A stretch of 64,000 nucleotides of DNA from contig JBBAKX010000003.1 of assembly GCA_040403315.1 (NCBI GenBank), positions 29,627-93,626 on the forward strand, read 5' to 3'. A program made the position numbers and the translations under genes. A model generated the notes under the pieces. That model did no database searches and had not been told where the DNA came from. It saw only the letters and a list, made by a program, of their open reading frames with translations. Numbering within the stretch: position 1 is the stretch's first letter; the number at the start of each line of letters is the position of its first letter. Positions 36,708 to 50,485 of the stretch are shown here, in pieces. Source of the DNA: Flavobacteriales bacterium. GTDB taxonomy: Bacteria; Bacteroidota; Bacteroidia; M30B66.

Positions 36708-37760
36708 TTATTTTGCGCCTAATATCTCTAGGTACCTCAATAGAGCTTGGTTTTCCTGCTCCAAGATAAAGGCTACGAATTCTTGTTTTTGGTTTTCTGT
36801 TTGGGCCTGTTCTAATGCATGATAATATTTCTTTCTAGTGTTTAAGTCGCCTTTAATATTGGCAATTACGAAACCGTAGCGCAGTAATATTAGGTTCATG
36901 AGTAACCTTGAAGTGCGGCCGTTTCCATCAATAAAGGGGTGGATTGTAACCAAGCGCTGATGTGCCTCAGCCGCTAGGACCACTGGATGTAGTTGAGATT
37001 CTGACTTGCTAAGCCATGCAAAAAAATCTTCCATTTGTATAGGCACCAAATAGGGTGGAGGAGGCATGTGTTTACTTCCAGTTATCATTACTTGAACCTG
37101 CCTGTAACGACCTGCATTTTCTGGATCGATTCCACGAAGGATTAAATTGTGCAATGCAAGCACATCCCTTTCACGAATGGGCGTGTTTTTCGAAGCCAAA
37201 TCTTTCATGTAAACGATTGCTTCTTGGTGATTTATTGCTTCCAGATGCTCGCGCATACTTTTTCCAGAAATAGTAAGCCCTTCATTAACAACTAAGTCTG
37301 TTTCTTGAAGTGTAAGTGTATTTCCTTCAATCCGATTGCTTTCGAAGGTGTATTCTAGTTCAAGGGCTTGTGTAATTCTGTAACTATCGAATTTCCTAAA
37401 TTCTTGAAGTTTACTTCTGTGATCTTCAAGTGCACTTAGTATGTCATCAAATGCTCTGTAAGGTGCAATTGGCTCGCGAAGTGCCGAAACTGTTTCTTCA
37501 GAAAACAAGGCAAGCACATCGGGTAGTAGTTGAATATCAGAGCCCAATTCACGGTTGATTTTTTCTTTCAACCAATGGGTGATTAGTTGCTTCGTAGGAA
37601 TCTCGAGCAAGTTCGCTAAATCTAAGATTTGGTTCCTGGTTGGAAGCCTGCTGCCGGTTTCAAATTTACTAACCAATGCTTGGTCAATACCCAATTGCTG
37701 TGCTACTTCGCGAACGAGCAGCCTTTTCTTTTCTCTAGCGTTTTTTAGGATTGTTTGCAT
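36708..37760 (-). CDS. HTH(XRE)-Fic domain protein (AMPylation / adenylyltransferase family)
   Basis: N-terminal HTH LVREVAQQLGIDQALVSKFETG. Canonical Fic motif HPFIDGNGRTSRLLMN. Confidence 0.8.
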   Translation of the reverse strand: MQTILKNAREKKRLLVREVAQQLGIDQALVSKFETGSRLPTRNQILDLANLLEIPTKQLITHWLKEKINRELGSDIQLLPDVLALFSEETVSALREPIAPYRAFDDILSALEDHRSKLQEFRKFDSYRITQALELEYTFESNRIEGNTLTLQETDLVVNEGLTISGKSMREHLEAINHQEAIVYMKDLASKNTPIRERDVLALHNLILRGIDPENAGRYRQVQVMITGSKHMPPPPYLVPIQMEDFFAWLSKSESQLHPVVLAAEAHQRLVTIHPFIDGNGRTSRLLMNLILLRYGFVIANIKGDLNTRKKYYHALEQAQTENQKQEFVAFILEQENQALLRYLEILGAK

Positions 37761-37786: not shown

Positions 37787-39055
37787 TTAGTCATTTTCTT
37801 TGATGCTTTCAACATATTTCTCCCAACTCAGATTTTTTTTAAATGCTGCGACATTTTCCTCTAAAATTGGTTGATGAATAAATCGTTCCATCGCAGCTGT
37901 CATGCTTTCAATGTTGTCAGCTTCTGCCAAATAGCCATTTTTTCCATCTTCTATGGCATTCGCAAAATGACCGACACGTGTGGCTAAAATGGGTTTATTG
38001 AAATTGTAGGCTATAGATTCTACTCCGCTTGGTGTCGCGTATTCATAGTAATTTACTACAACATCGCTGAGTTGAAAAAAACGATACACTTCTTCGTTTG
38101 CAATAAATCGATTAGCTACTAAAACCCGATTTTGAATTCCAAATTTTTCGATCAATTCCAATGGACGATAATCATTTTCTTGGTCGTTGCTTTTGATAAA
38201 AATCGACTTCAGCATTTTAAATATGGCCGATTTTAATTTCACATGCCATTTCTTTTTATCTACCGTATCCCAAAATGATTCTCCTGCGATAATTAAACTT
38301 GCATCAGGATACTTCTCAGCAATTCTTGAAAATGCTTCAATGGTATAATGAAGTCCTTTGTATTTCCGGATAAATCCAAAAAACAAAAACACTGTTGTTC
38401 CGAGTTTTTCCTTTTTTCGTTCTAGCTTAATATTGAAGTGTTCGTCAGGAGCGAAGATGTCATAAATAGGATGAAACAACCTCAGGATGGTTTTCATCTC
38501 TTTTGATCTTGCTCCATCGGTGCTCACTGCGAATTGAACTTCTGGCATAAATGCACTAAACTCATCAATTGTAATTTGGCCATGCATGATAAAGGTGTCG
38601 GCCTTTTTAAGCGCAAACCGGGTGAGCATTTTATCGAGTTCGCCCGTTTCTTTTTGTACAACATTGTGCACATCAAAAATGATTTCACATTTGGGCAGTT
38701 TCCGTTTCACGCTTTGAGCAATCACTCCCATTGGAAGTCCTTGGATGGCAATGGCCCACTGAAAAATCACTTTTTTAGGTGCAATTTTCGCAATTAGATT
38801 TGCCGTTTTAAACCAACTAATCGGATTGTTGTAATTGGTGATGTAGTGCACCTGTATTTTGCTTCCTTCTAACAAATTGGTTCGAGAGTTCCTATCGATA
38901 AAGTCGCGGGGAATGATTGCAGGATATTGTTGGGTCCAAGAAACCAAATGAACCTCATTTCCTTGTTTTTCCAATGCTTTGCAAAGGGAAACCGTAAAGT
39001 TGGAAATACCTCCTTTAAACTGAGGTCCAGGACCGAATACGACAACTTTTTGCAC
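37787..39055 (-). CDS. Glycosyltransferase family 4
   Basis: MQKVVVFGPGPQFKGGISNFTVSL start and a C-terminal GT1 core (GVESIAYNFNKPILATRVGHFANAIEDGKNGYL). Confidence 0.7.
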   Translation of the reverse strand: MQKVVVFGPGPQFKGGISNFTVSLCKALEKQGNEVHLVSWTQQYPAIIPRDFIDRNSRTNLLEGSKIQVHYITNYNNPISWFKTANLIAKIAPKKVIFQWAIAIQGLPMGVIAQSVKRKLPKCEIIFDVHNVVQKETGELDKMLTRFALKKADTFIMHGQITIDEFSAFMPEVQFAVSTDGARSKEMKTILRLFHPIYDIFAPDEHFNIKLERKKEKLGTTVFLFFGFIRKYKGLHYTIEAFSRIAEKYPDASLIIAGESFWDTVDKKKWHVKLKSAIFKMLKSIFIKSNDQENDYRPLELIEKFGIQNRVLVANRFIANEEVYRFFQLSDVVVNYYEYATPSGVESIAYNFNKPILATRVGHFANAIEDGKNGYLAEADNIESMTAAMERFIHQPILEENVAAFKKNLSWEKYVESIKEND

Positions 39056-39399
39056 GTTGCGAATATAACGGGTATTTCAATTATATATGTAGCGCACTCA
39101 TGCTGGTTTAGATTGCTGGAATTCAACAATTAAAAACTTCTTTTCACAGCTCCAAGCAAGTTTATTCGGGATTCGTGCATTGAAAAACACCGTAATTATC
39201 AGACATTCAGTTTTCTATAACCAACAGTTGTGCGACTTTTCAAAATTTCAGCTGTAAGCATTCTATTAAATTTGCAGGAACAATCATTCAGCATTTAAGG
39301 TATTAACATACAAATCAGATTTTGGAAAACGTTGTTCAAAAGACGCGCAACATTCTTGAAAACTGAAACGTCACACACACGATCTTTAACCTTAAAAAT

Positions 39400-40215
39400 A
39401 TGATTAGCAAACTTTTCGCCCCAGTTTTAGGCCTTATTCTAATGGCAGGGCAACTTTCGGCAGCAGAAAGCATCGTTCGGGTATCTCAATCATTGTCTCA
39501 ACAAAAGGCTTATGCAGGTGGTACATTTTTGGTGAAAATTCGCATCGAACGACGAAATCTCGACAGTTACTTCCAGATTCAACAAGATCTTCCTAAAGGA
39601 ATGGAAGCAACAGGCGTAGAAAGTCAAGGTGCTACTTTCACCTTTAAGGATGGAAAAGTAAAATATACTTGGCTTCGTTTGCCAGCAACTGAAGAAGTTC
39701 AGGTAATGTACAAGGTAACTGTACCTTTCGAAATGCGCGGTGCACAAGCCATTAAAGGCAACTACTACTACATTCGTGAGGAAGAAAAGGAATCATATCC
39801 TCTTCCAGTTAACAATATTGAAGTTATCGAGAATGCGGCACCTTCTGATTCTTTGGCAGAAAAAACTTTGCTCGGCATTATTAATAATGACGCAAATAAG
39901 CCTTCCTACACTTCAGAAGAAAAGCCAGATTTGTTATTCAAAGTGCAAATCTTGAGTTCTACACGTAAACTCAATCGTGATTCGCTGAGCAAAGAATACA
40001 ATGTAAAAGATGTTGTGGATGAAGAGAATTTTAACGGTTTGTTCAAATACACTGTTGGGAACTTCAAGACCTACGAATCAGCGCGAGATTTCAAAAATCG
40101 ACTCGATTTCCAAAAATATATTCCATTCGTAATTGCATACAACCGTGGTGCACGAATTACTGTTGGAGAAGCGATGCAACTGGCATCTAAACGTAAAACA
40201 GTAGCGAAAAACTAA
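39400..40215 (+). CDS. Secreted SPOR-domain (septal peptidoglycan-binding) protein, paralog A
   Basis: Signal peptide. N-terminal beta-sandwich-like domain (QQDLPKGMEATGVES...KYTWLRLP). C-terminal SPOR domain FKVQILSSTRKLNRDSL...NGLFKYTVGNFKTYESARDFKNRL...VIAYNRGARI. Confidence 0.6.
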   Translation: MISKLFAPVLGLILMAGQLSAAESIVRVSQSLSQQKAYAGGTFLVKIRIERRNLDSYFQIQQDLPKGMEATGVESQGATFTFKDGKVKYTWLRLPATEEVQVMYKVTVPFEMRGAQAIKGNYYYIREEEKESYPLPVNNIEVIENAAPSDSLAEKTLLGIINNDANKPSYTSEEKPDLLFKVQILSSTRKLNRDSLSKEYNVKDVVDEENFNGLFKYTVGNFKTYESARDFKNRLDFQKYIPFVIAYNRGARITVGEAMQLASKRKTVAKN

Positions 40216-40324
40216 GAAGATTTTTATTCGAATTTATTAACGCTCCGTTGGTCTTCCATCGGAGCGTTAATTTTTTACAATTAACTCAAGTAAAGTTTCA
40301 GCTTGTTTTTGCGAACTTCGCAGG

Positions 40325-41344
40325 ATGAAGCATCTGTTATGTTTCGCATGGCTGTTACTTTTTCAGCAGGCTGCGCAAAGTCAGAAACTAAATTACCAAT
40401 TGCCCAAAGAATTTAAATCGGGCGAGGAAATCGTTGTATCAATCGCCATTCCTATCAAGGATCTCAAAGGAATTGCCAGATTTCAACAAGAGTTTCCGAA
40501 AGGTTTCGAAGTAAGTGAGTTGAAAAATGACGGCTCTATTATTTCCTTTTCCAATAGCCTCCTTCAATTTTTGTGGATTCAGCTTCCACTAAAAGATAGC
40601 CTAAGTGTTTCTTATAAGTTGCGCTGTTTGCCTGGCTTTGGAGGAAAAATAGAGGTTCCTTCGAGATTCTTCTTCCTTAATGGTTCCGTGCGTGAAGAAT
40701 CGGTTTTCAATCCGATGCCGCTATCTGTTAGTGGAGAGGTCTCTAAAAAATTCCAAGCATACAAACAAGATAAGCCAACCGATGCTTCACCAGTAAAGCC
40801 TGATGCAAAATCTTCAACCATTACCTCCGATAAATCTACCCCAGTAAAGTCCTCCACAACTCAGCCGAAATCTGTAGCACCCTCAAATGAGAAGGAAGAG
40901 AAACCTTCGGCTACAGCTACAAAAAAAGAGAATGCCGCGAATTCAACTGCAGTCAAAGAAGCGCCTGTTGCGAAAAAAGAAACAGCACCTGTTCCTGATA
41001 AAATATCAACGACCCAAACGAATGCCATTCCAGTTTCCAACAAACCCAAAGTGGAAGGCGCTGCTTCTGGAGATAAAATATCTTTTCGCATTCAACTTGC
41101 AGCTTCTTCAGAAAAGGGCAATCTAAAAGATCTGTCTAGCAAATTCGGTGTTCCAGAAAAGGATATCCGTGAGGAAACCCACAACGGTCTTTTCAAATAC
41201 ACCACAGGAGAATTTAACTCGCTAGCTGAGGCTCGAAAATCTATGTCGGCAAACCCCAAAATGAAGCAAGGTGCTTTTGTAGCTGGATACAACAAAGGAA
41301 TTCGAATCGATCTTGAAGAAGCCATTAGAATGAGTAAGAAATAA
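40325..41344 (+). CDS. Secreted SPOR-domain protein, paralog B, with Pro/Lys/Ser/Thr-rich linker
   Basis: Same architecture as paralog A (QQEFPKGFEVSEL...FLWIQLP; SPOR FRIQLAASSEKGNLKDL...NGLFKYTTGEFNSLAEARKSMS...VAGYNKGIRI). About 90-aa low-complexity linker between the two domains. Confidence 0.6.
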   Translation: MKHLLCFAWLLLFQQAAQSQKLNYQLPKEFKSGEEIVVSIAIPIKDLKGIARFQQEFPKGFEVSELKNDGSIISFSNSLLQFLWIQLPLKDSLSVSYKLRCLPGFGGKIEVPSRFFFLNGSVREESVFNPMPLSVSGEVSKKFQAYKQDKPTDASPVKPDAKSSTITSDKSTPVKSSTTQPKSVAPSNEKEEKPSATATKKENAANSTAVKEAPVAKKETAPVPDKISTTQTNAIPVSNKPKVEGAASGDKISFRIQLAASSEKGNLKDLSSKFGVPEKDIREETHNGLFKYTTGEFNSLAEARKSMSANPKMKQGAFVAGYNKGIRIDLEEAIRMSKK

Positions 41345-42351
41345 TGAGCATATATACTGAGCGACAACGACGACAGCTTGTCATTATCATAACGGTGATA
41401 ATGGGGGCTTTTTTGTTTTGGTTAATGCGTGATATTATTCCTGCATTTCTTGGTGCCGTTGTGATGTATGTTTTATTTCGCCCACTTTTTGCCGTTTTTT
41501 TAATCAAGTGGAATTTCCCAAAATGGTTAGCCACTTTGTCGGTTGTAATGCTGTCGTTCTTACTATTGGTTTTACCTTTTGTAGTTGTCGGTTTTATGAT
41601 CACCGACAAGGTGAAACTGTTGCTTCAACAAACCGATTCTATCAATGCCATTTTGTATCGAGTGCAAGATTATATCGGGTACGATTTCCATGATCCAGCA
41701 ACTTTGAACAAGCTTATTCAATCGGTGCAGGGAAGCCTTTTTGGAAGCGTGAGTTCGATAATCAGTGGAGTAGGAGGGATGTTTCTTACTGTGGCTATCA
41801 TGTATTTCATTCTTTGGTTCATGTGGATGAATTACAATAAATTTGAAAAGACACTTGTCAAGATTGTCCCTTTTTCTCGAATCGAGTCGGATCAATTTGC
41901 CGATGAACTGAAGAGTTCAACTTTTGGAAATGTTCTAGGTCAAGGCGCAATTTGTTTGGTGCAAGCAACTTTACTTTCTATCGGATTTGTAATTTTTGGT
42001 TTGGAAGATCCAATCTTCTGGGGCACTATTACCTTTTTTGTTTCATTCCTTCCAGTTGTGGGTGCTCCTCTGGTTTTTGTGCCAGCAGGACTTATCGCTT
42101 TAGCCTACGGAGATTCTTATGGAGGCTATGGTATAATGATTTATGGTTTTGTATTGGTTACTAACATCGACAATGTATTGCGACTTTTTATTTCACGCTA
42201 TTTTGCGGATACACATCCTTTAATCACCATTTTGGGCGTTATAGCTGGCATTCCTGTTTTTGGCATTTTGGGATTGGTGTTTGGTCCTTTGTTAATTTCT
42301 TGGTTTTTACTTTTAACCCGCATACTAATTAAGACTGAAACCAAGGTTTAA
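41344..42351 (+). CDS. AI-2E family transporter (PerM / UPF0118)
   Basis: 8 TM helices. Family-typical N-terminus (RQLVIIITVIMGAFLFWLMRDIIPAFLGAVVMYVLFRPLF). Start overlaps the upstream stop (TAATG). Confidence 0.8.
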   Translation: MSIYTERQRRQLVIIITVIMGAFLFWLMRDIIPAFLGAVVMYVLFRPLFAVFLIKWNFPKWLATLSVVMLSFLLLVLPFVVVGFMITDKVKLLLQQTDSINAILYRVQDYIGYDFHDPATLNKLIQSVQGSLFGSVSSIISGVGGMFLTVAIMYFILWFMWMNYNKFEKTLVKIVPFSRIESDQFADELKSSTFGNVLGQGAICLVQATLLSIGFVIFGLEDPIFWGTITFFVSFLPVVGAPLVFVPAGLIALAYGDSYGGYGIMIYGFVLVTNIDNVLRLFISRYFADTHPLITILGVIAGIPVFGILGLVFGPLLISWFLLLTRILIKTETKV

Positions 42352-42548
42352 TTAATTTAGTTTGTAATTTGAATTTCAGATAATTAAGGCCAATAAATAC
42401 TTTTTGTGTTTTATAATAACTGTCGTAGAATCAATAAATAGAGATGTAGAAAGTAACTATTGTCAATAGGGAATTTGCACTAATAATGGATGACAATATT
42501 TAGCTGATTCCTGTATTTTAACTTGTAATTTTTACGAACTTGCCTCCA

Positions 42549-42929
42549 ATGATAAAGACTTTTGTAAATATCTCTCTGCTTTGTGTGGCAATTTTGAGTC
42601 TTTCAGGCTGCTACTATGATGTAGAAGACGAACTATACCCTGATAACAATGTTTCATGCGATACTATAGCAGTAAATTTTTCTGTTGTAAAGCCAATTTT
42701 TGATTCGAAATGCGTTGGCTGCCATGGCGGTGCCTCACCATTAGCAGGAATCAAATTGGATACTTACTTAGATACCAAAGCCTATTTAGATGGCGCTGCT
42801 GCAACTTTGGTTTCTTCAGTAAAACGCGATGGAAATGCATCGAATATGCCTCAAGGCCAGCCGAAATTGGAAGCTTGCGACATAAGCAAAATATCTGCTT
42901 GGGTGGCTGCTGGATACCCCGAGAATTAA
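42549..42929 (+). CDS. Small lipoprotein with CxxCH heme-binding motif (PSCyt1-like cytochrome c domain)
   Basis: Lipobox LSGC. FDSKCVGCHGGASPLAGIKLDTY matches the planctomycete-type cytochrome c (PSCyt1) pattern I..PI....C..CHG......gL.L. Confidence 0.5.
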   Translation: MIKTFVNISLLCVAILSLSGCYYDVEDELYPDNNVSCDTIAVNFSVVKPIFDSKCVGCHGGASPLAGIKLDTYLDTKAYLDGAAATLVSSVKRDGNASNMPQGQPKLEACDISKISAWVAAGYPEN

Positions 42930-42974
42930 TTTTGGCACTGTTTTTATCTCCCATTCATAAAAATCCCTTCTCAC

Positions 42975-43532
42975 ATGAAAATCAATAAATTATTTGCTGG
43001 AATCCTCATTCTAGCCGGAGCATTTCAGGTAAATGCTCAAGACATGCATCAAACTAGAACTGCAAAAATTCAATTCTTCTCCAAAACATCAGTTGAAAAT
43101 ATTGATGCAGTGAATAAGGAAGCAACATCTTTCTTGAATACAAAAACTGGAGATGTTGTTTTTGCTTCGTTAATTAAAAGCTTCCGTTTTGAAAAAGCAC
43201 TTATGGAAGAGCATTTTAACGAGAATTACATGGAAAGCACCAAATTTCCTAAATCAGATTTCAAAGGAAAAATAGCCAATCTAGCAGATGTTGATTTTTC
43301 TAAAGATGGCATGTACAAAGCAAAAGTTACAGGAAACCTTACCATGCATGGTGTAACCCAACCTGCTACTGCTGATGCAATCATCACTGTTAAAGGCGGT
43401 AAAATCTCAGCTTCATCTAAATTCAAAGTAAAACTTGCCGATTACAAGATCGAACGTCCTGTTGTTGTAGCTGATAAAATCTCCGATACAATTGAAATTT
43501 CAGTTGACGCGGCTTACGAGCCAAAGAAATAA
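42975..43532 (+). CDS. YceI-like periplasmic (polyisoprenoid-binding) protein
   Basis: Signal peptide, then the YceI pattern (KIQFFSKTSVENI...F.G.......D.S...Y...G.LT.HGVT.P......I). Confidence 0.75.
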   Translation: MKINKLFAGILILAGAFQVNAQDMHQTRTAKIQFFSKTSVENIDAVNKEATSFLNTKTGDVVFASLIKSFRFEKALMEEHFNENYMESTKFPKSDFKGKIANLADVDFSKDGMYKAKVTGNLTMHGVTQPATADAIITVKGGKISASSKFKVKLADYKIERPVVVADKISDTIEISVDAAYEPKK

Positions 43533-43550
43533 CCTACAATTATCATTCAA

Positions 43551-43579
43551 GGCCGGAGTTTTTCCGGCCTTTATTTTTG
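43551..43579 (+). terminator. Rho-independent terminator after the yceI-like gene
   Basis: GGCCGGA-gttttt-TCCGGCC followed by TTTATTTTT. Confidence 0.65.
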
Positions 43580-43583
43580 CCCT

Positions 43584-44483
43584 ATGCTAAGCCAATCTAG
43601 ATTTCTTTTGCTTTCTATTTTACTGTTAACATCAGCCGCATTTGCACAACCGGTTGATGATGAAATGGCTAAGCTCCTCGAAGCTTCATTGGCAGAGCAA
43701 GAAACGCCTGAATACGCAGCAGCAACCTTCAAAACTACCCGTTTGGTGAATGGGCACACCAACGAACAAGTGGCCGCAGGTGTTTTGGATTTTCGAATTT
43801 CTCACCGATTCGGTGCCTTTAATACAGGAGCTTACAACTTTTTCGGACTCGATGTGGCATCCATGCGAATGGCGCTCGAATACGGATTAACGCCTTGGCT
43901 TACAATTGGCGGAGGAAGAAGTACTTACGAAAAAACTTATGATGGATTCGCAAAGTTTCGCTTATTGCGCCAAAGCTCAGGTAAAAAAGTGATGCCTTTT
44001 TCACTTAATTATTTCTCATCATGGGCAGTGAAAACGCTCAAATTTTCAAATCCTGACCTCAAAAATTATTACACATCAAACTTCTATTTCACCAATCAAA
44101 TCATAATTGCTCGAAAATTCTCCGATAGCTTTTCGTTCATGCTTGCACCAACAGTTGTGCACAGGAATTTGGTTGCCTCGGTTAATGATGACAATGACCT
44201 AATCTCTTTGGGTGTTGGTGGTCGATTGAAGCTAACCCGCCGCATGAGCATTAATGCAGAGTATTATTACCAATTTAACAAGCCCGAAGGCTCAGTTAAT
44301 AGTTTATCGATAGGGTTTGATATTGAAACCGGCGGACACGTATTTCAGATTTCTTTCACCAACTCACCAGCAATGATTGAACGCGCTTTCATTAACGAAA
44401 CAACTGGTCGTTGGGACAAAGGCGATATCATCGGAGGTTTCTGTATCTCCAGAAATTTCACACTTTTCGATCCTCGCAAATAA
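43584..44483 (+). CDS. Secreted putative outer-membrane beta-barrel protein (DUF5777-like)
   Basis: Signal peptide LLLSILLLTSAAFAQ. Alternating amphipathic beta-strand pattern with aromatic residues. Ends in F. Family assignment tentative. Confidence 0.4.
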   Translation: MLSQSRFLLLSILLLTSAAFAQPVDDEMAKLLEASLAEQETPEYAAATFKTTRLVNGHTNEQVAAGVLDFRISHRFGAFNTGAYNFFGLDVASMRMALEYGLTPWLTIGGGRSTYEKTYDGFAKFRLLRQSSGKKVMPFSLNYFSSWAVKTLKFSNPDLKNYYTSNFYFTNQIIIARKFSDSFSFMLAPTVVHRNLVASVNDDNDLISLGVGGRLKLTRRMSINAEYYYQFNKPEGSVNSLSIGFDIETGGHVFQISFTNSPAMIERAFINETTGRWDKGDIIGGFCISRNFTLFDPRK

Positions 44484-44488
44484 TAGTC

Positions 44489-45991
44489 TTAGTTTAAATT
44501 GTAGTCCTCTTCATCTGCATCGAAGTCTTCATCGCTGAATACGCTCGACATAAGATCTTTAAACAATACGTTACTATCTAGCGCCATTCGATTGATCAAC
44601 GAAAAGGATGCTAAACCGTAAAGTGTAAATTCCATCAACAACAACTTCTCATCTTCGTTTGCTTCCTTGTGGAATTGCTTCACAAGTGCCTCCAATCCTT
44701 CAACCAACAACAATTTCTCTCTCCAACCCGCATTTGGTTCATCTAGAAGAAGATCAACCTCATTGTTTTGGTTAAACCAGAGAATTACTTGTTCGTACGG
44801 GTTTTTCTCTTTTGCACGTTTGATGCGCTCAGGATCGGGAAAGTAATTTACAAATTGAGTGCGTATTGCCTTCGAAATGAGGAATTTCGCCACATTAACC
44901 GGGCCTTCTTGCTCGCCTTCATAAACCAACTCGATTTTACCGTTGATGGCAGGAATGGTTCCCCACAAGTCGCTCACGCGTGCAATCGTTTTCTTTTCGC
45001 CATTGATCAATGCTCTGCGTTCTGCAGTGCTCACCAAATTCTCGAATGCCGAAATGCTCAATCGTGCAGAAACCCCACTTTTAGGATCCACAAAATCTGA
45101 ACTTCTTGCCTCGAATCCAATTTGTTCCACTAAATCGCGAAGCATTTCCGGAACTTCAACCAAATCGGTTTGTTCTTTTGGCAAATTAGCCTCTTGCGCG
45201 GTGATGGTTTTTGCAATCTTGATGCTTTTCGGGTAGTGCGTTACGATTTGACTTTCGATCCTGTCTTTCAACGGAGTCACAATCGAACCTCTATTGGTGT
45301 AATCTTCTGGGTTTGCTGTGAAGATAAAGCGAATGTCGAGTGCCAAGCGCATTCTGAATCCTCTGATCTGAATATCGCCTTCCTGTAAGATATTGAACAA
45401 CGCAACTTGAATTCTGGCTTGAAGATCCGGCAACTCGTTGATCACGAAAATGCATCTGTTCGATCTTGGAATCAATCCGAAGTGAATTGCGCGTTCGTCG
45501 GAATAAGATATTTTAAGGTTTGCAGCTTTGATCGGATCAATATCGCCAATCAAATCGGCTACTGTAACATCAGGTGTGGCAAGCTTTTCAACGAAACGAT
45601 CATCCCGATGCATCCAGAAAATTTCGGTTTGGTCGCCATGAATTGAAATGTACTCTTTTGCCGAATTGGTGAGTGGCTGCAATGGATCTTCATTGATTTC
45701 TGAACCCTTCAAAACAGGAATATACTCATCCAACAGCGATGTCATTTGGCGCGCAATTCTCGTTTTTGCCTGTCCGCGCAACCCCAATAAATTGATGTTG
45801 TGCCCCGAAAGTATTGCCCGTTGAATATCTGGCATCACCGTTTTTTCGTAGCCCAAAATCCCCGGAAACGGGTTACGGTTGTTGCGGATGGCATCGATCA
45901 AGTTTTCGCGCAATTCGGAACTAATTGATCTGCTTTTGTAACCACTGGCTTTTAATTCGCCAAGGGTTTTCATTTTGAGGAGTTCGTTCAT
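44489..45991 (-). CDS. ChlI/BchI-like AAA+ ATPase (Mg-chelatase subunit I homolog, non-photosynthetic)
   Basis: Walker A LGLRGQAKT. Walker B region CIFVINELPDL. Follows the ChlI layout (ALFNILQEGDIQIRGF, FIFTANPEDYTNRGSIVTPLKDR). Acidic C-terminal tail. Confidence 0.7.
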   Translation of the reverse strand: MNELLKMKTLGELKASGYKSRSISSELRENLIDAIRNNRNPFPGILGYEKTVMPDIQRAILSGHNINLLGLRGQAKTRIARQMTSLLDEYIPVLKGSEINEDPLQPLTNSAKEYISIHGDQTEIFWMHRDDRFVEKLATPDVTVADLIGDIDPIKAANLKISYSDERAIHFGLIPRSNRCIFVINELPDLQARIQVALFNILQEGDIQIRGFRMRLALDIRFIFTANPEDYTNRGSIVTPLKDRIESQIVTHYPKSIKIAKTITAQEANLPKEQTDLVEVPEMLRDLVEQIGFEARSSDFVDPKSGVSARLSISAFENLVSTAERRALINGEKKTIARVSDLWGTIPAINGKIELVYEGEQEGPVNVAKFLISKAIRTQFVNYFPDPERIKRAKEKNPYEQVILWFNQNNEVDLLLDEPNAGWREKLLLVEGLEALVKQFHKEANEDEKLLLMEFTLYGLASFSLINRMALDSNVLFKDLMSSVFSDEDFDADEEDYNLN

Positions 45992-45997
45992 CAGAAC

Positions 45998-47086
45998 TTA
46001 AAGTTTTTTATTTCGGTTACGTTCAAAGTCGGCAAAAACAAGATCTCCTAGGCCTTTTAACCCTGTGAAGAATGCCTTACCTCCATTTGCTTCCGTGAAT
46101 TCATTTACAAAATCCTGCAACCAGGAATCAGTGGCCACCATAAATGTGGTTACTGGAATTTTTAGTTTTTTACACTGCACTGCGAGTGCGAGTGTGCGGT
46201 TCACAATCTTACGATCGAGTCCGTTCGAGTTTTTATAGTACGAATCACCAACTTTCAAACAGGTAGGTTTGCCATCGGTGATCATGAAAATCTGCTTGTT
46301 CTGATTTTTTCTTCTGCGCAACAAATCCATCGAGAGCTCCAAACCTGCAACTGTGTTAGTGTGGAAGGGACCAACCTGTAAATACGGAATATCTTTTACC
46401 TCAATTTGCCAAGCATCATTTCCAAATACGATCACATCGAGTGTGTCTTTTGGATACTTAATTCTGATCAGTTCTGCCAGAGCCAAGGCAACACGTTTTG
46501 CAGGAGTGATTCGGTCTTCACCGTAAAGAATCATCGAGTGTGAAATATCGATCATCAAAACAGTGGATGTTTGCGTTTTGTATTCACGCTCCATCACTTC
46601 CAAGTCTTTCTCTTCGAGGATTAAATCTCCGATGCCATGGTTCACTTGTGCGTTTCTGATCGAATCGGTTAACGAAATGCTCTCGGCAGGATCGCCAAAT
46701 TCGTAGGCTCTGCGGCCTGTTCCGGATTCGTCGCCGTTGCCACTGTAACGCGTCGACCTTTGACCTTCCTTGCCCTTTTTTAACTTTCCGAAAATCTGAT
46801 CGAGTGCTCCACGGCGAATTTCACCTTCCGTTTTGGGTGTCATCTGCAAGTTTCCTGGCTCATCTTCTTTGAGATAACCTTTGCGCTTGAGGTCTTCCAC
46901 AAAATCACCCATTCCATAATCGTCGTCGGTGAGTTTGTGTTGACGATCGATCTCGTTCATCCAACTTAATGCTTCGCCTACATCACCGGAGGTATGTAAG
47001 AGAATTTCCTTGAATAGATCAAACAGCCGTGTAAACGGATCTTGTTCATCATCAGGATCATACCGGGCAAATCGAAATCCTTCCAT
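45998..47086 (-). CDS. VWA-domain protein (ChlD-like partner of the AAA+ ATPase)
   Basis: C-terminal von Willebrand A domain with MIDAS-like VLMIDISHSM...ITDGKPT. 6 nt from the ChlI-like gene on the same strand. Confidence 0.7.
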   Translation of the reverse strand: MEGFRFARYDPDDEQDPFTRLFDLFKEILLHTSGDVGEALSWMNEIDRQHKLTDDDYGMGDFVEDLKRKGYLKEDEPGNLQMTPKTEGEIRRGALDQIFGKLKKGKEGQRSTRYSGNGDESGTGRRAYEFGDPAESISLTDSIRNAQVNHGIGDLILEEKDLEVMEREYKTQTSTVLMIDISHSMILYGEDRITPAKRVALALAELIRIKYPKDTLDVIVFGNDAWQIEVKDIPYLQVGPFHTNTVAGLELSMDLLRRRKNQNKQIFMITDGKPTCLKVGDSYYKNSNGLDRKIVNRTLALAVQCKKLKIPVTTFMVATDSWLQDFVNEFTEANGGKAFFTGLKGLGDLVFADFERNRNKKL

Positions 47087-47221: not shown

Positions 47222-50200
47222 TTATCGAATCACTTGAATCTTTTCTGTCCAATGTTGGCTTTCTGACTCAACTTTCAAAAAGTAGGTGCCATTGGCTAGA
47301 TGACTCACCTGAATTTGGTTCGAGTTGTTTGTTTGTGCTACCAACCGACCGCTTAGATCAACAATAAATAGTCGATCTGCTGCTGCCTGATCTGGAATTC
47401 TCACCTGAAGAAATTCTTGGGCTGGATTCGGATAAACTTGCAATTGATCATCTTGATTCAGCACAGAAACGGTTGTTCCAACTTCAATCACAATGCTTAA
47501 ACTATCAGAACAATCACTATTTGACGCGTAACATATCACGCTGTAAGTTCCAGCTTCGGTGAATGTGTGGGTTGGATTTTCTAGGTTTGAAGTATTTCCA
47601 TCCCCAAAGTTCCAGAGGTAATCTGTTGCACCTTCAGTAACAATGGTAAAATCCACCATTGCATCAGGTAACATTAGAATTTCTGCTGAAGCTGCAATTT
47701 CAACAAATACAATTGGGTCGGTGTTTTCGATCGTGAAGTCGACCGTTGATGACGTTCCATCGAAGAAATCAAAGCCCAATGTGTAATCTCCAGCAGGCAT
47801 TCCTGCATAGTTGAAGCTGCTCTCAATAATATCTTGCCCTGTGAGTTCAACACCATCCGAATTAAACAGCAACAGTTGTGCTGTGCCTGGTTGCAACACA
47901 TTCAATTGCAAAGTCCCATCGTTTTCTGCGCAGCTTTCGGCTGTAACTTCCAATGAAATCTGCATTTGATTGAGGTTCCAATTGGCTTGAGCATTGGCTG
48001 CCGATTCTTCAATTTCTGCCAACGAATTGCCTCCCAAAATGGCGAAGGCATAAATGGCAGAATCGCCTGGTGCGATGGTTTCTCCCCAAGTACCTATGAA
48101 CGCAGCCACATCTCCAACGTTGCTGTTATTTCTGGTTGCATTTCCTGAAAGCACATTGAATTTCTCTTGGTTCGTGAATCCATCATACAACTGAATACTT
48201 CCGCCAGTTCCGTCGCTGTTGAAGCAATAAGCGCTACCATCTTGCCAGCTGAGGAGTTTCACTGCCATATATCGGTTGGTTTGAGACGCATCATAGGCAT
48301 AAACCATTTTACGAATCGGATCCCAAGTACACACATTCGATGCAGCATTTTGGATGTCCCAATCGGTGAAAATGCCACCGAAAACATCTGAAGCTACTGC
48401 ATTTCCTGTGTTTTTTACTATGTATTCCATCACCACATGGTTCGAAAGTTCACCTTCGGTAGATGCATAAGCACGCTGCCGAATTGAAAGTGGTTGCGCA
48501 CCCGCAGCATTGGTGCTAAACTTCGATACAATTTCTTTGTCGCCCGCGGAAGGATTTTCGATTTCTCGAACTGCATCGATCCGCGTGAAGTTATTGTCGT
48601 AGCCTGGAATCACTTCTGCATACACGTTGTCTGCAACTAGTCCGTCGCTGCCCAACATAAATCCCGAAGCATACATCTGACTGCCACTGTTGTTGAGCGA
48701 AACGCCCAATCCATCTGTAGCGTAATCGGCGTTATAACCGATACTTCCACGCGAGGTAACTGTGGTATGTAAGTTGTTGATTGCAAGATCCATGTAATCT
48801 TTGTTCACCCGAACGCTGATGTATTCGAATGCTGAGTAATTGGTTGCTGGATCGGTGTAGGTAAGTTTGAAAATCACATCTTCATTGATGGATGCGCTGT
48901 TCAGAACAACAATTTCGAATGGTGAAGCAGTGTTGCTTACCGATTGAAGGGTGTTGATTACGCCAGCATTGTGGCCTCCTTGAAGGATCTGTATGTTTGG
49001 ATTTTCGGTGCTGATTTGAACAGCAAGTGCGTTTGTCGGACTAAGATAATTGAAGAAATCGCCCACCACTTCCATCGTATCGCCTGCCACAATGAAATAA
49101 CTTCCATTGCTACTAAACTGATAGTTTTGGAAGCGTACAGATGGGATTTCCGGATCATTCAGCGCACGAAGAGTATTCAATCGGCCTGAACCTAACAGAT
49201 GGTAACGGTTTTCATTCCCCGGAAGGGTATAGATTGATGTATCGGATGTAACGCGCAAACGTTCAGCGATTTGCTGAGCAGTATAGGATGGGAAATGGCT
49301 TTTCACTAGAGCCGCAGCGCCGGCCACAAGTGGGGCAGAGAAGGACGTTCCAGAACTGATGTCGTATCCATTAAATGGCGAGCATGAAAGAAGCAATTCT
49401 CCTGGAGCAACAATATCGAGCATCGGACCATAAGTAGAAAGCGACCAAGCCAAATCGGTTGATCCCGTTGCGCCAACGCTCATCACGCCTTCGTATGATG
49501 CTGGATAATAGTTCTCGTTAATCCCAGAATTACCAGCTGCAGCAATGATCAGTGCATCATTGTTGGTGATGGCATACTGAATAACTTCTTCAGCGAATGG
49601 ACTTGGGAAGGTGCTTCCCCAGCTAGCGTTGATGATTTTACAACCAAGATCACTTAAATATACTATGCCTTCATAGCCAAAATTAAATCCGTTGGCATCG
49701 TCGATTCTCACAGGTACAAATTTGCAGCGGTAAGCATTTCCTGAGATTCCGATTCCATTGTTGGTGGTTGCGGAACTCATTCCGGTAGTGAACATTCCAT
49801 GCGGCGACAATGTGGCCGTTGGATCGTTGGTGTTTGAAACAGTATTCCAACCTCGATAATCGTCGATATAACCGTTGTTGTCGTCGTCGATTCCATTGAT
49901 AGGATCGGCAATGTTGAAGCGAACGTTTCCAAGATCTTGGTGGTCGAACTGAATACCTGCATCGGTAATTCCGATATAAACACTTGAATCGCCTTCTTCA
50001 ATATCGAAGGCTTCGAATGTTTTAATTAAAGCATGATGATATTGCTGACTAATTTGTGGATCGTTAGGCGTGAACATCGGTTTGTGCACGTAGCGCGGCT
50101 GAACCCATTCGAACAATCCGGTTTTATTAAGAAGCATAGCCACTTCACGAAAGTCCTTGTCGGACTGGTATTTCAGTGAAAGGATGAGACTCAAATCGAC

Positions 50201-50485
50201 CAGTTTTTTACCTGAACTATTGGTTTCCTTACGCAGCTTGTTTATGTGCATGAAAATCTTCTTGGAAGAAGTTACACCAAGCTGACTCGTTACGTTTTTT
50301 AACGCCGCAATTTCTGAAGGATCAGTGTTGATAAGGTTTCTGTAGGATTCTTTGTATTTTAGAATCATTTCGCCTGGCACCACATCCGAAGCTTGAACAG
50401 CTTGAGGAATAGTGTATGATTGTGCATCCGATAGCATCGGAGACATTAGTAAAGAAAGGCAAAGTAGTAAGTTGAGGTTCTTCAT
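47222..50485 (-). CDS. Subtilisin-like S8 serine peptidase with PKD domain and T9SS C-terminal sorting domain (1087 aa)
   Basis: Signal peptide. S8 triad regions (GITDAGI, HGMFTTG, GTSFSAPLVAGAAALV). PKD-like WNFGDGNTSNLENPTHTFTEAGTYSV. C-terminal LQVYPNPAQEFLQV...LANGTYFLKVES...KIQVIR T9SS CTD. Confidence 0.85.
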   Translation of the reverse strand: MKNLNLLLCLSLLMSPMLSDAQSYTIPQAVQASDVVPGEMILKYKESYRNLINTDPSEIAALKNVTSQLGVTSSKKIFMHINKLRKETNSSGKKLVDLSLILSLKYQSDKDFREVAMLLNKTGLFEWVQPRYVHKPMFTPNDPQISQQYHHALIKTFEAFDIEEGDSSVYIGITDAGIQFDHQDLGNVRFNIADPINGIDDDNNGYIDDYRGWNTVSNTNDPTATLSPHGMFTTGMSSATTNNGIGISGNAYRCKFVPVRIDDANGFNFGYEGIVYLSDLGCKIINASWGSTFPSPFAEEVIQYAITNNDALIIAAAGNSGINENYYPASYEGVMSVGATGSTDLAWSLSTYGPMLDIVAPGELLLSCSPFNGYDISSGTSFSAPLVAGAAALVKSHFPSYTAQQIAERLRVTSDTSIYTLPGNENRYHLLGSGRLNTLRALNDPEIPSVRFQNYQFSSNGSYFIVAGDTMEVVGDFFNYLSPTNALAVQISTENPNIQILQGGHNAGVINTLQSVSNTASPFEIVVLNSASINEDVIFKLTYTDPATNYSAFEYISVRVNKDYMDLAINNLHTTVTSRGSIGYNADYATDGLGVSLNNSGSQMYASGFMLGSDGLVADNVYAEVIPGYDNNFTRIDAVREIENPSAGDKEIVSKFSTNAAGAQPLSIRQRAYASTEGELSNHVVMEYIVKNTGNAVASDVFGGIFTDWDIQNAASNVCTWDPIRKMVYAYDASQTNRYMAVKLLSWQDGSAYCFNSDGTGGSIQLYDGFTNQEKFNVLSGNATRNNSNVGDVAAFIGTWGETIAPGDSAIYAFAILGGNSLAEIEESAANAQANWNLNQMQISLEVTAESCAENDGTLQLNVLQPGTAQLLLFNSDGVELTGQDIIESSFNYAGMPAGDYTLGFDFFDGTSSTVDFTIENTDPIVFVEIAASAEILMLPDAMVDFTIVTEGATDYLWNFGDGNTSNLENPTHTFTEAGTYSVICYASNSDCSDSLSIVIEVGTTVSVLNQDDQLQVYPNPAQEFLQVRIPDQAAADRLFIVDLSGRLVAQTNNSNQIQVSHLANGTYFLKVESESQHWTEKIQVIR

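Follow-up and report, generated by a model that had tools for sequence, protein, structure and literature searches.

Tandem genes for sandwich-SPOR proteins adjoining an AI-2E permease gene in a freshwater Bacteroidota lineage

Are two exported proteins that end in a putative peptidoglycan-binding domain functionally tied to the transporter encoded directly after them? The question is raised by positions 39400-42351 of the 64,000-nucleotide (nt) stretch analysed here (hereafter the window; contig JBBAKX010000003.1 of a Flavobacteriales bacterium). This segment holds three open reading frames (ORFs), all on the + strand: ORF1 (39400-40215; 271 amino acids, aa), ORF2 (40325-41344; 339 aa) and a gene for an integral membrane permease of the AI-2E family (PF01594; 41344-42351; 335 aa). 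SPOR domains, the type assigned here to the C-terminal ends of ORF1 and ORF2, are the best-understood septum-targeting route in bacteria, and knowledge of them comes almost entirely from Proteobacteria and Firmicutes. The reading preferred here, held with a probability of roughly 0.55, is that ORF1 and ORF2 would be periplasmic peptidoglycan-binding scaffold proteins, probably septal, with a clade-specific tie of one paralog to an AI-2E permease. The locus itself is a clade-specific variant of a sizeable, uncharacterised Bacteroidota SPOR family.

Domain architecture of ORF1 and ORF2

BLASTP comparison of ORF1 with ORF2 gave two separate significant segments, one between the N-terminal domains (23% identity over 103 aa; E 3e-11) and one between the C-terminal domains (35% identity over 102 aa; E 2e-14), and the two proteins are, judging by these alignments, ancient paralogs in both domains. 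The initial annotation had described tandem paralogs with the same two-domain layout, a description borne out by these alignments and by AlphaFold2 models of both proteins made from family alignments. Each model comprised a signal-peptide helix, a confidently predicted beta-sandwich, a disordered linker, a beta-alpha-beta-beta-alpha-beta domain (residues 178-253 in ORF1, 252-328 in ORF2), a short strand and a terminal helix. ORF1 was thus divided into a Sec-type signal peptide recognised by inspection (residues 1-21; predicted cut LSA/AES), an immunoglobulin (Ig)-like beta-sandwich (residues 25-143; 39472-39828), a short disordered linker (residues 148-168) and a divergent SPOR domain (residues 178-263; 39931-40188) that includes an additional strand and helix at its C-terminal end. 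ORF2 showed the same succession, with a Sec-type signal peptide, again by inspection (residues 1-19; predicted cut AQS/QK), an Ig-like beta-sandwich (residues 23-142; 40391-40750), a disordered linker of about 100 aa rich in K, A, S, T and P (residues 146-249; 40760-41071) and a divergent SPOR domain with a C-terminal extension (residues 252-338; 41078-41338).

The extra linker reported earlier for the second copy was recovered with a length of 104 aa and the composition K17 A14 S14 T13 P12, being Ala-rich as well as rich in the residues first named; the ORF2 model predicted disorder over residues 149-249. Linker length was thus about 100 aa in ORF2 vs about 30 aa in ORF1. The shared QQ-[DE]-[LF]-PKG-[MF]-E motif was also found as described (QQDLPKGME in ORF1, QQEFPKGFE in ORF2), and its Pro and Gly were invariant across both ortholog families.

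The two proteins had further been called lipoprotein-like, a label that did not survive inspection, as the lipobox [LVI][ASTVI][GAS]C was absent from both. Residues 1-30 of ORF1 contained no Cys, and Cys6 of ORF2 (MKHLLCF) preceded the hydrophobic core, had no Gly, Ala or Ser at -1 and was not conserved in orthologs. The Gln at +1 of the predicted ORF2 cut recurred in most orthologs, a pattern in keeping with the pyroglutamate 'Q-rule' for substrates of signal peptidase I in Bacteroidetes. Nor did the proteins follow the bitopic plan of FtsN, DamX and DedD: on inspection, they had signal peptides with AxA-type or AQS/Q cut motifs, and in both models a folded sandwich stood between the N-terminus and the linker.

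The sandwich domain reached no Pfam family, and signatures of copper binding, isopeptide bonds or thioesters were not identified in it. It resembled Ig-like modules including the CLIPPER domain (9ifr), YcnI (7me6), cohesins, Gram-positive pilin domains and the MG/RBD domains of alpha-2-macroglobulin, with sequence identities of 7-16%, a likeness that goes no further than a very widespread fold.

Concerning the C-terminal domain, SPOR was the only recurrent Pfam match in both families, reaching E <= 0.01 in 18 of the 31 ORF1-family members (best 3e-7) and in 18 of the 33 ORF2-family members (best 9e-6). The ortholog P0210 passed the SPOR cut-off (25.3 vs 21 bits), and PF05036 matches were precomputed on eight orthologs (P0030, P0058, P0065, P0082, P0083, P0085, P0086 and P0091). 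When the C-terminal-domain profile was compared with the PDB, the top match was the SPOR domain of CwlC (1x60; E 0.003), followed by RRM proteins, as expected because the SPOR fold is ribonucleoprotein (RNP)-like. Profile-profile comparison by hhalign with a reference alignment of the SPOR domains of Escherichia coli FtsN, DamX, DedD and RlpA plus CwlC gave a probability of 91.9% (E 7e-7), with 73 aligned columns that covered the entire domain. The order of elements in both models fitted beta-alpha-beta-beta-alpha-beta with the extra strand and helix (pLDDT, the per-residue model confidence, of 85-95 in ORF2), the fold-search lists being filled by sandwich matches. When the C-terminal profile was used to search for homologs, the matches were for the most part fragments from this family rather than distant SPOR proteins, with a few labels of PF05036 or 'SPOR domain-containing'.

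The hhalign alignment placed the residues expected to meet the ligand. Positions Q251, S254, W283 and R285 of FtsN either contact denuded glycan or are required for localisation to the septum, and RlpA has A273 at the S254 position and L307 at the W283 position (PMC6895207). In hhalign, Q183, L214 and K216 of ORF1 were paired with FtsN Q251, W283 and R285; the residues at the four positions were Q183, S186, L214 and K216 in ORF1 and Q257, A260, L289 and K291 in ORF2, the latter placed by extending the hhalign alignment through the family alignments. The contact Gln and Lys were invariant in both ortholog families. As family matches, orthologs above the cut-off, the CwlC match in the PDB, hhalign and the contact residues agreed, the C-terminal domain was accepted as a divergent SPOR subtype marked by its C-terminal extension.

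Conservation of the gene triad and coupling of ORF2 to AI-2E

Conservation of the locus was assessed by scanning one genome for each GTDB species; of the 146 relatives found, 80 were kept. The clade of the window comprised 17 loci (L001-L017, two of them from protein look-ups) and 65 loci lay outside it (L018-L082). ORF1 and ORF2 were adjacent in all 14 clade loci that extended far enough, and AI-2E stood next to ORF2 in 12 species-level genomes of the clade, so that the synteny proposed for checking by the initial annotation was indeed found. The junction between ORF2 and AI-2E measured -4 to +4 nt (-4, -1, 0 and +1 to +4) in 12 of 14 loci; in the window, the TAATG noted earlier was present at 41342-41346, where the stop codon of ORF2 shares one base with the start codon of AI-2E. 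The flanking genes of the triad occurred in at least four different configurations, and this constancy of the triad amid varying flanks indicates that it is maintained by selection. ORF2 and AI-2E lay on the same strand, abutting or overlapping, and were conserved across species with changing flanks, which is the pattern taken to mark an operon. The nearest database loci were freshwater metagenome-assembled genomes labelled Bacteroidetes, Bacteroidia or Flavobacteriales, and the SPOR-SPOR-AI-2E arrangement occurs only in a single uncultured freshwater lineage of Bacteroidota. A metagenome scan from the AI-2E protein returned three near-identical short contigs only.

The earlier assignment of the third gene to AI-2E was upheld by a match to PF01594 of 140.1 bits (cut-off 34.3; E 1e-40) over profile positions 2-318 of 327. 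The permease is a full-length member alongside the AI-2E transporters (TC 2.A.86) TqsA, YdiK, YhhT and PerM of E. coli and YtvI of Bacillus subtilis, and was detectably similar to YdiK and YtvI, its closest solved relative being E. coli YdiK (7ot9; E 1e-7). It was an equivalog of neither YtvI (TIGR02872; 63.6 vs 198 bits) nor YdiK (NF008216; 28.9 vs 305 bits). AI-2E permeases are widespread, with a substrate proposed for no more than two of them. They form pentameric bowls with a wide periplasmic basin; a function has been assigned to just two members, and substrates are mostly unknown (PMC9475539).

The claim that duplicated SPOR proteins feed into the transporter gene held for one copy only: ORF2 is coupled to AI-2E, while ORF1 is set apart by a strong hairpin and U-run that follow it. 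This GC-rich hairpin (40236-40277, + strand) lay in the 109-nt spacer between ORF1 and ORF2 and had 15 bp (12+3 bp stem), with a U-run after it. Its minimum free energy was -31.6 kcal/mol (z -5.2), and 0 of 200 shuffled sequences folded as well; a consensus terminator scan did not pick it up, owing to one internal mismatch. An equivalent hairpin and U-run occurred in L002, L003, L004, L006, L010 and L012, making seven loci with the window, and the stems differed among these seven, with at least four distinct sequences. The hairpin was absent in L007, L008, L011 and L014-L015, where the spacer measured 18-80 nt. The element resembles intrinsic terminators or attenuators. With the hairpin and U-run after it, ORF1 is probably a separate transcript unit, possibly attenuated. 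It is also probably more highly expressed. Across the clade, ORF1 was also more conserved (57-97% identity vs about 35-89% for ORF2).

Two short boxes were noted upstream of the paralogs when equivalent positions of L002-L016 were compared. A CGA(A/T)CTTTA-like box stood 10-15 nt 5' of the ORF1 start (39380-39388 in the window) and a CGAnnTTCG-like box 4-6 nt 5' of the ORF2 start (40311-40320), both being conserved at a large number of clade loci. Candidate roles are a Bacteroidota -7 promoter element, the mRNA then being leaderless or short, and a shared site of regulation. Matches to the CGAACTTTA-like box 5' of ORF1 were not enriched in the window (25 vs 20 expected); it was conserved across loci, and no claim is made for it.

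Relation to a Bacteroidota-wide family and to characterised systems

In the wider family, the sandwich domain was found in 931 cluster representatives, with a SPOR-like end in 133 of the best 149, and all but one of 80 named genome matches carried Bacteroidota labels. The 65 outside loci (Bacteroidales, Marinilabiliales, Flavobacteriales and others) had one gene encoding a protein of about 450 aa, in which a hydrophobic anchor at the N-terminus precedes two sandwich repeats, a linker and SPOR; three-repeat forms of the family measured 600-650 aa. The two-repeat relatives retained Trp at the position of FtsN W283. Within about 20 nt, the family gene was followed by one for an outer-membrane beta-barrel protein with thrombospondin-type-3 (TSP3) repeats, which matched OMP_b-brl and DUF6089, with PorG below the cut-off, and possessed EF-hand-like motifs or, in Flavobacteriales, two SPOR domains. 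This barrel/TSP3 partner was absent from the locus and from the 64-kb window. The two-repeat protein and its barrel partner (for example at L060:5482-8179 and L039:5884-9493) resemble a module that ties the inner membrane, peptidoglycan and the outer membrane together, one that is arguably more interesting than the variant in the window. An SLT lytic transglycosylase gene was often seen upstream at these loci outside the clade.

The sandwich, which bears a QQxLPxGF motif, and the SPOR subtype, extension included, were common to the parent family (for example P0063-P0070 and P0123-P0128) and the window proteins, at 25-40% identity in each domain. The window lineage differed from that family in having two single-repeat genes, cleavable signal peptides and AI-2E instead of the barrel. 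Both window sandwiches scored better against repeat 1 than against repeat 2 in most relatives. Fission of a two-repeat ancestor, in which repeat 1 would have given rise to ORF2 and repeat 2 to ORF1, is therefore disfavoured, and duplication of a one-repeat gene is the favoured, still putative, origin of the pair. The best reading of these comparisons is that ORF1 and ORF2 would be clade-specific single-repeat derivatives of the Bacteroidota-wide family.

Among characterised proteins, E. coli DedD, DamX, FtsN and RlpA and Bacillus subtilis CwlC likewise carry a SPOR-type domain at the very end of the protein. In ORF2, as in these proteins, a long, low-complexity, Pro-rich periplasmic linker precedes SPOR, and both window proteins share the glycan-contact Gln (FtsN Q251) and a basic residue (Lys, for R285 in FtsN). 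Unlike the bitopic DedD, DamX and FtsN, however, ORF1 and ORF2 have no predicted cytoplasmic tail or transmembrane anchor; unlike RlpA, they are not lipoproteins, and they lack the enzymatic domain carried by RlpA and CwlC. Their N-terminal Ig-like sandwich is found in none of these five proteins, and their SPOR domain has an extra invariant strand and helix compared with classical SPOR domains. Concerning the permease, none of the described AI-2E members has a dedicated peptidoglycan-binding partner gene in the literature.

Possible function and genomic surroundings

In the preferred reading, ORF1 and ORF2 would reach the periplasm via cleavable Sec signal peptides, and their SPOR domains would dock on 'denuded' glycan strands, which amidases have stripped of peptides and which are found mainly at the septum of dividing cells. 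To our knowledge, all SPOR domains tested localise to septa, one from Cytophaga included. The sandwich domain may hold a protein or glycan partner, and the flexible 100-aa linker of ORF2 could let its two ends bridge a periplasmic distance. ORF2 and AI-2E would be co-transcribed and translationally coupled, and thus made together, and ORF2 might then position or modulate the permease relative to the cell wall.

Several points weigh against this reading. The scores of ORF1 and ORF2 themselves against SPOR (PF05036; 17.1 and 17.8 bits) fell below the gathering threshold of 21 bits. Of the C-terminal SPOR domain claimed earlier, the divergent SPOR type stood, through orthologs and profile-profile comparison, while a match above the Pfam cut-off in the two proteins did not; read strictly, the significance of the SPOR profile match, to which the initial annotation had tied its claim, is borderline. 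Leu replaces FtsN W283 in both proteins, as it does in RlpA and CwlC, and the invariant C-terminal extension N-x-G-x-R-I-[TD]-[VL]-x-E-A, which is not found in classical SPOR domains, could alter ligand specificity. Signal-peptide cleavage was judged by eye only. At one clade locus (L005, 5965-9031), ORF1 and ORF2 were present and AI-2E did not follow ORF2; outside the clade, AI-2E was found within 6 kb at 0 of the 65 loci. In the literature, no paper ties SPOR proteins to AI-2E permeases, and co-mentions are incidental.

The sub-threshold scores, the RRM proteins ranking after CwlC in the PDB comparison and the unusual extension would also be accounted for if the C-terminal domain were merely RNP-like, with a ligand other than peptidoglycan and a superficial likeness to SPOR. 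Such an explanation appears highly improbable, as it has to contend with a significant profile-profile match to five characterised SPOR domains across the whole domain, with close orthologs that pass the Pfam cut-off and with invariant key Gln and basic residues; RNA binding is moreover implausible because the proteins are exported. If the domain does bind peptidoglycan, the proteins might nevertheless act as general envelope tethers or spacers that join peptidoglycan to another layer of the envelope around the whole cell, rather than specifically in division, AI-2E being an unrelated gene on a shared transcript. The pairing of the family gene at the 65 outside loci with the barrel/TSP3 protein, itself SPOR-ended in Flavobacteriales, points to the inner membrane-peptidoglycan-outer membrane module and thus in this direction, and so does the resemblance of the sandwich to adhesin, cohesin and pilin modules used in protein-protein contacts. 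The barrel partner is missing at the locus and across the window, however, and the residues with which septal SPOR domains contact glycan are retained; a general tether is considered doubtful.

A closer association than the preferred reading assumes would be a physical complex of ORF2 with AI-2E, in which the sandwich sits on the periplasmic basin of the pentamer and SPOR on septal peptidoglycan. The transporter would then be tethered to the wall or restricted to the septum, much as the initial annotation had supposed. In favour of such a complex are the overlapping or abutting stop and start kept in 12 species-level genomes despite changing flanks, the linker of ORF2, at about 100 aa long enough for a membrane-to-wall span, and the wide periplasmic basin and mostly unknown substrates of AI-2E pentamers (PMC9475539). 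Its basis is nonetheless adjacency, and ORF2 is predicted to be free in the periplasm; L005 has ORF2 but no AI-2E, and the larger parent family pairs with the outer-membrane barrel protein and never with AI-2E within 6 kb. This complex is therefore viewed as unlikely. The septum-localised export or signalling unit proposed in the initial annotation is likewise speculative, with adjacency alone as its basis. The more general notion that this AI-2E subfamily is a wall-tethered or septum-restricted permease whose periplasmic partner, ORF2, reads out denuded peptidoglycan seems rather improbable. If true, ORF2 would be the first described case of an accessory subunit in an AI-2E transporter, and a hint that some AI-2E members act in cell-envelope or division physiology. 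A conserved, coupled peptidoglycan-binding partner would also give a testable handle on one AI-2E subfamily. Each component belongs to a recognisable known class and the evidence is genomic; the locus thus has modest practical impact until ORF2 is demonstrated to be physically linked to AI-2E.

The window, whose G+C content was about 38-43%, carried further genes around the triad. An HTH-Fic protein (36708-37760, - strand), an AAA_5/VWA gene pair (44489-47086, - strand; the AAA_5 match being faint) and an S8 peptidase (47222-50485, - strand) were not kept with the triad beyond the closest relatives. According to Pfam labels, the S8 peptidase, of 1087 aa, possessed PKD repeats and a type IX secretion C-terminal domain. 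At L005, a convergent 384-aa gene with no Pfam match abutted the ORF2 stop.

A GT4-family glycosyltransferase gene (37787-39055, - strand) adjoined ORF1 in six loci (the window, L003, L004 and L007-L009), divergent in the window and co-oriented in L007-L009, and formed a weaker second layer of synteny. In one sub-lineage (the window, L003, L004, L007 and L008), a trio of genes was located 3' of AI-2E, at 42540-44483 in the window. One encoded a small lipoprotein resembling cytochrome c, with an LSGC lipobox and a CVGCH haem motif, and the other two a YceI-like protein and a beta-barrel of the DUF5777 family. The cytochrome c-like gene was present in two copies in L004, and in L008 AI-2E and the cytochrome c-like gene formed a single 427-aa ORF, representing either a fusion or an assembly frameshift.

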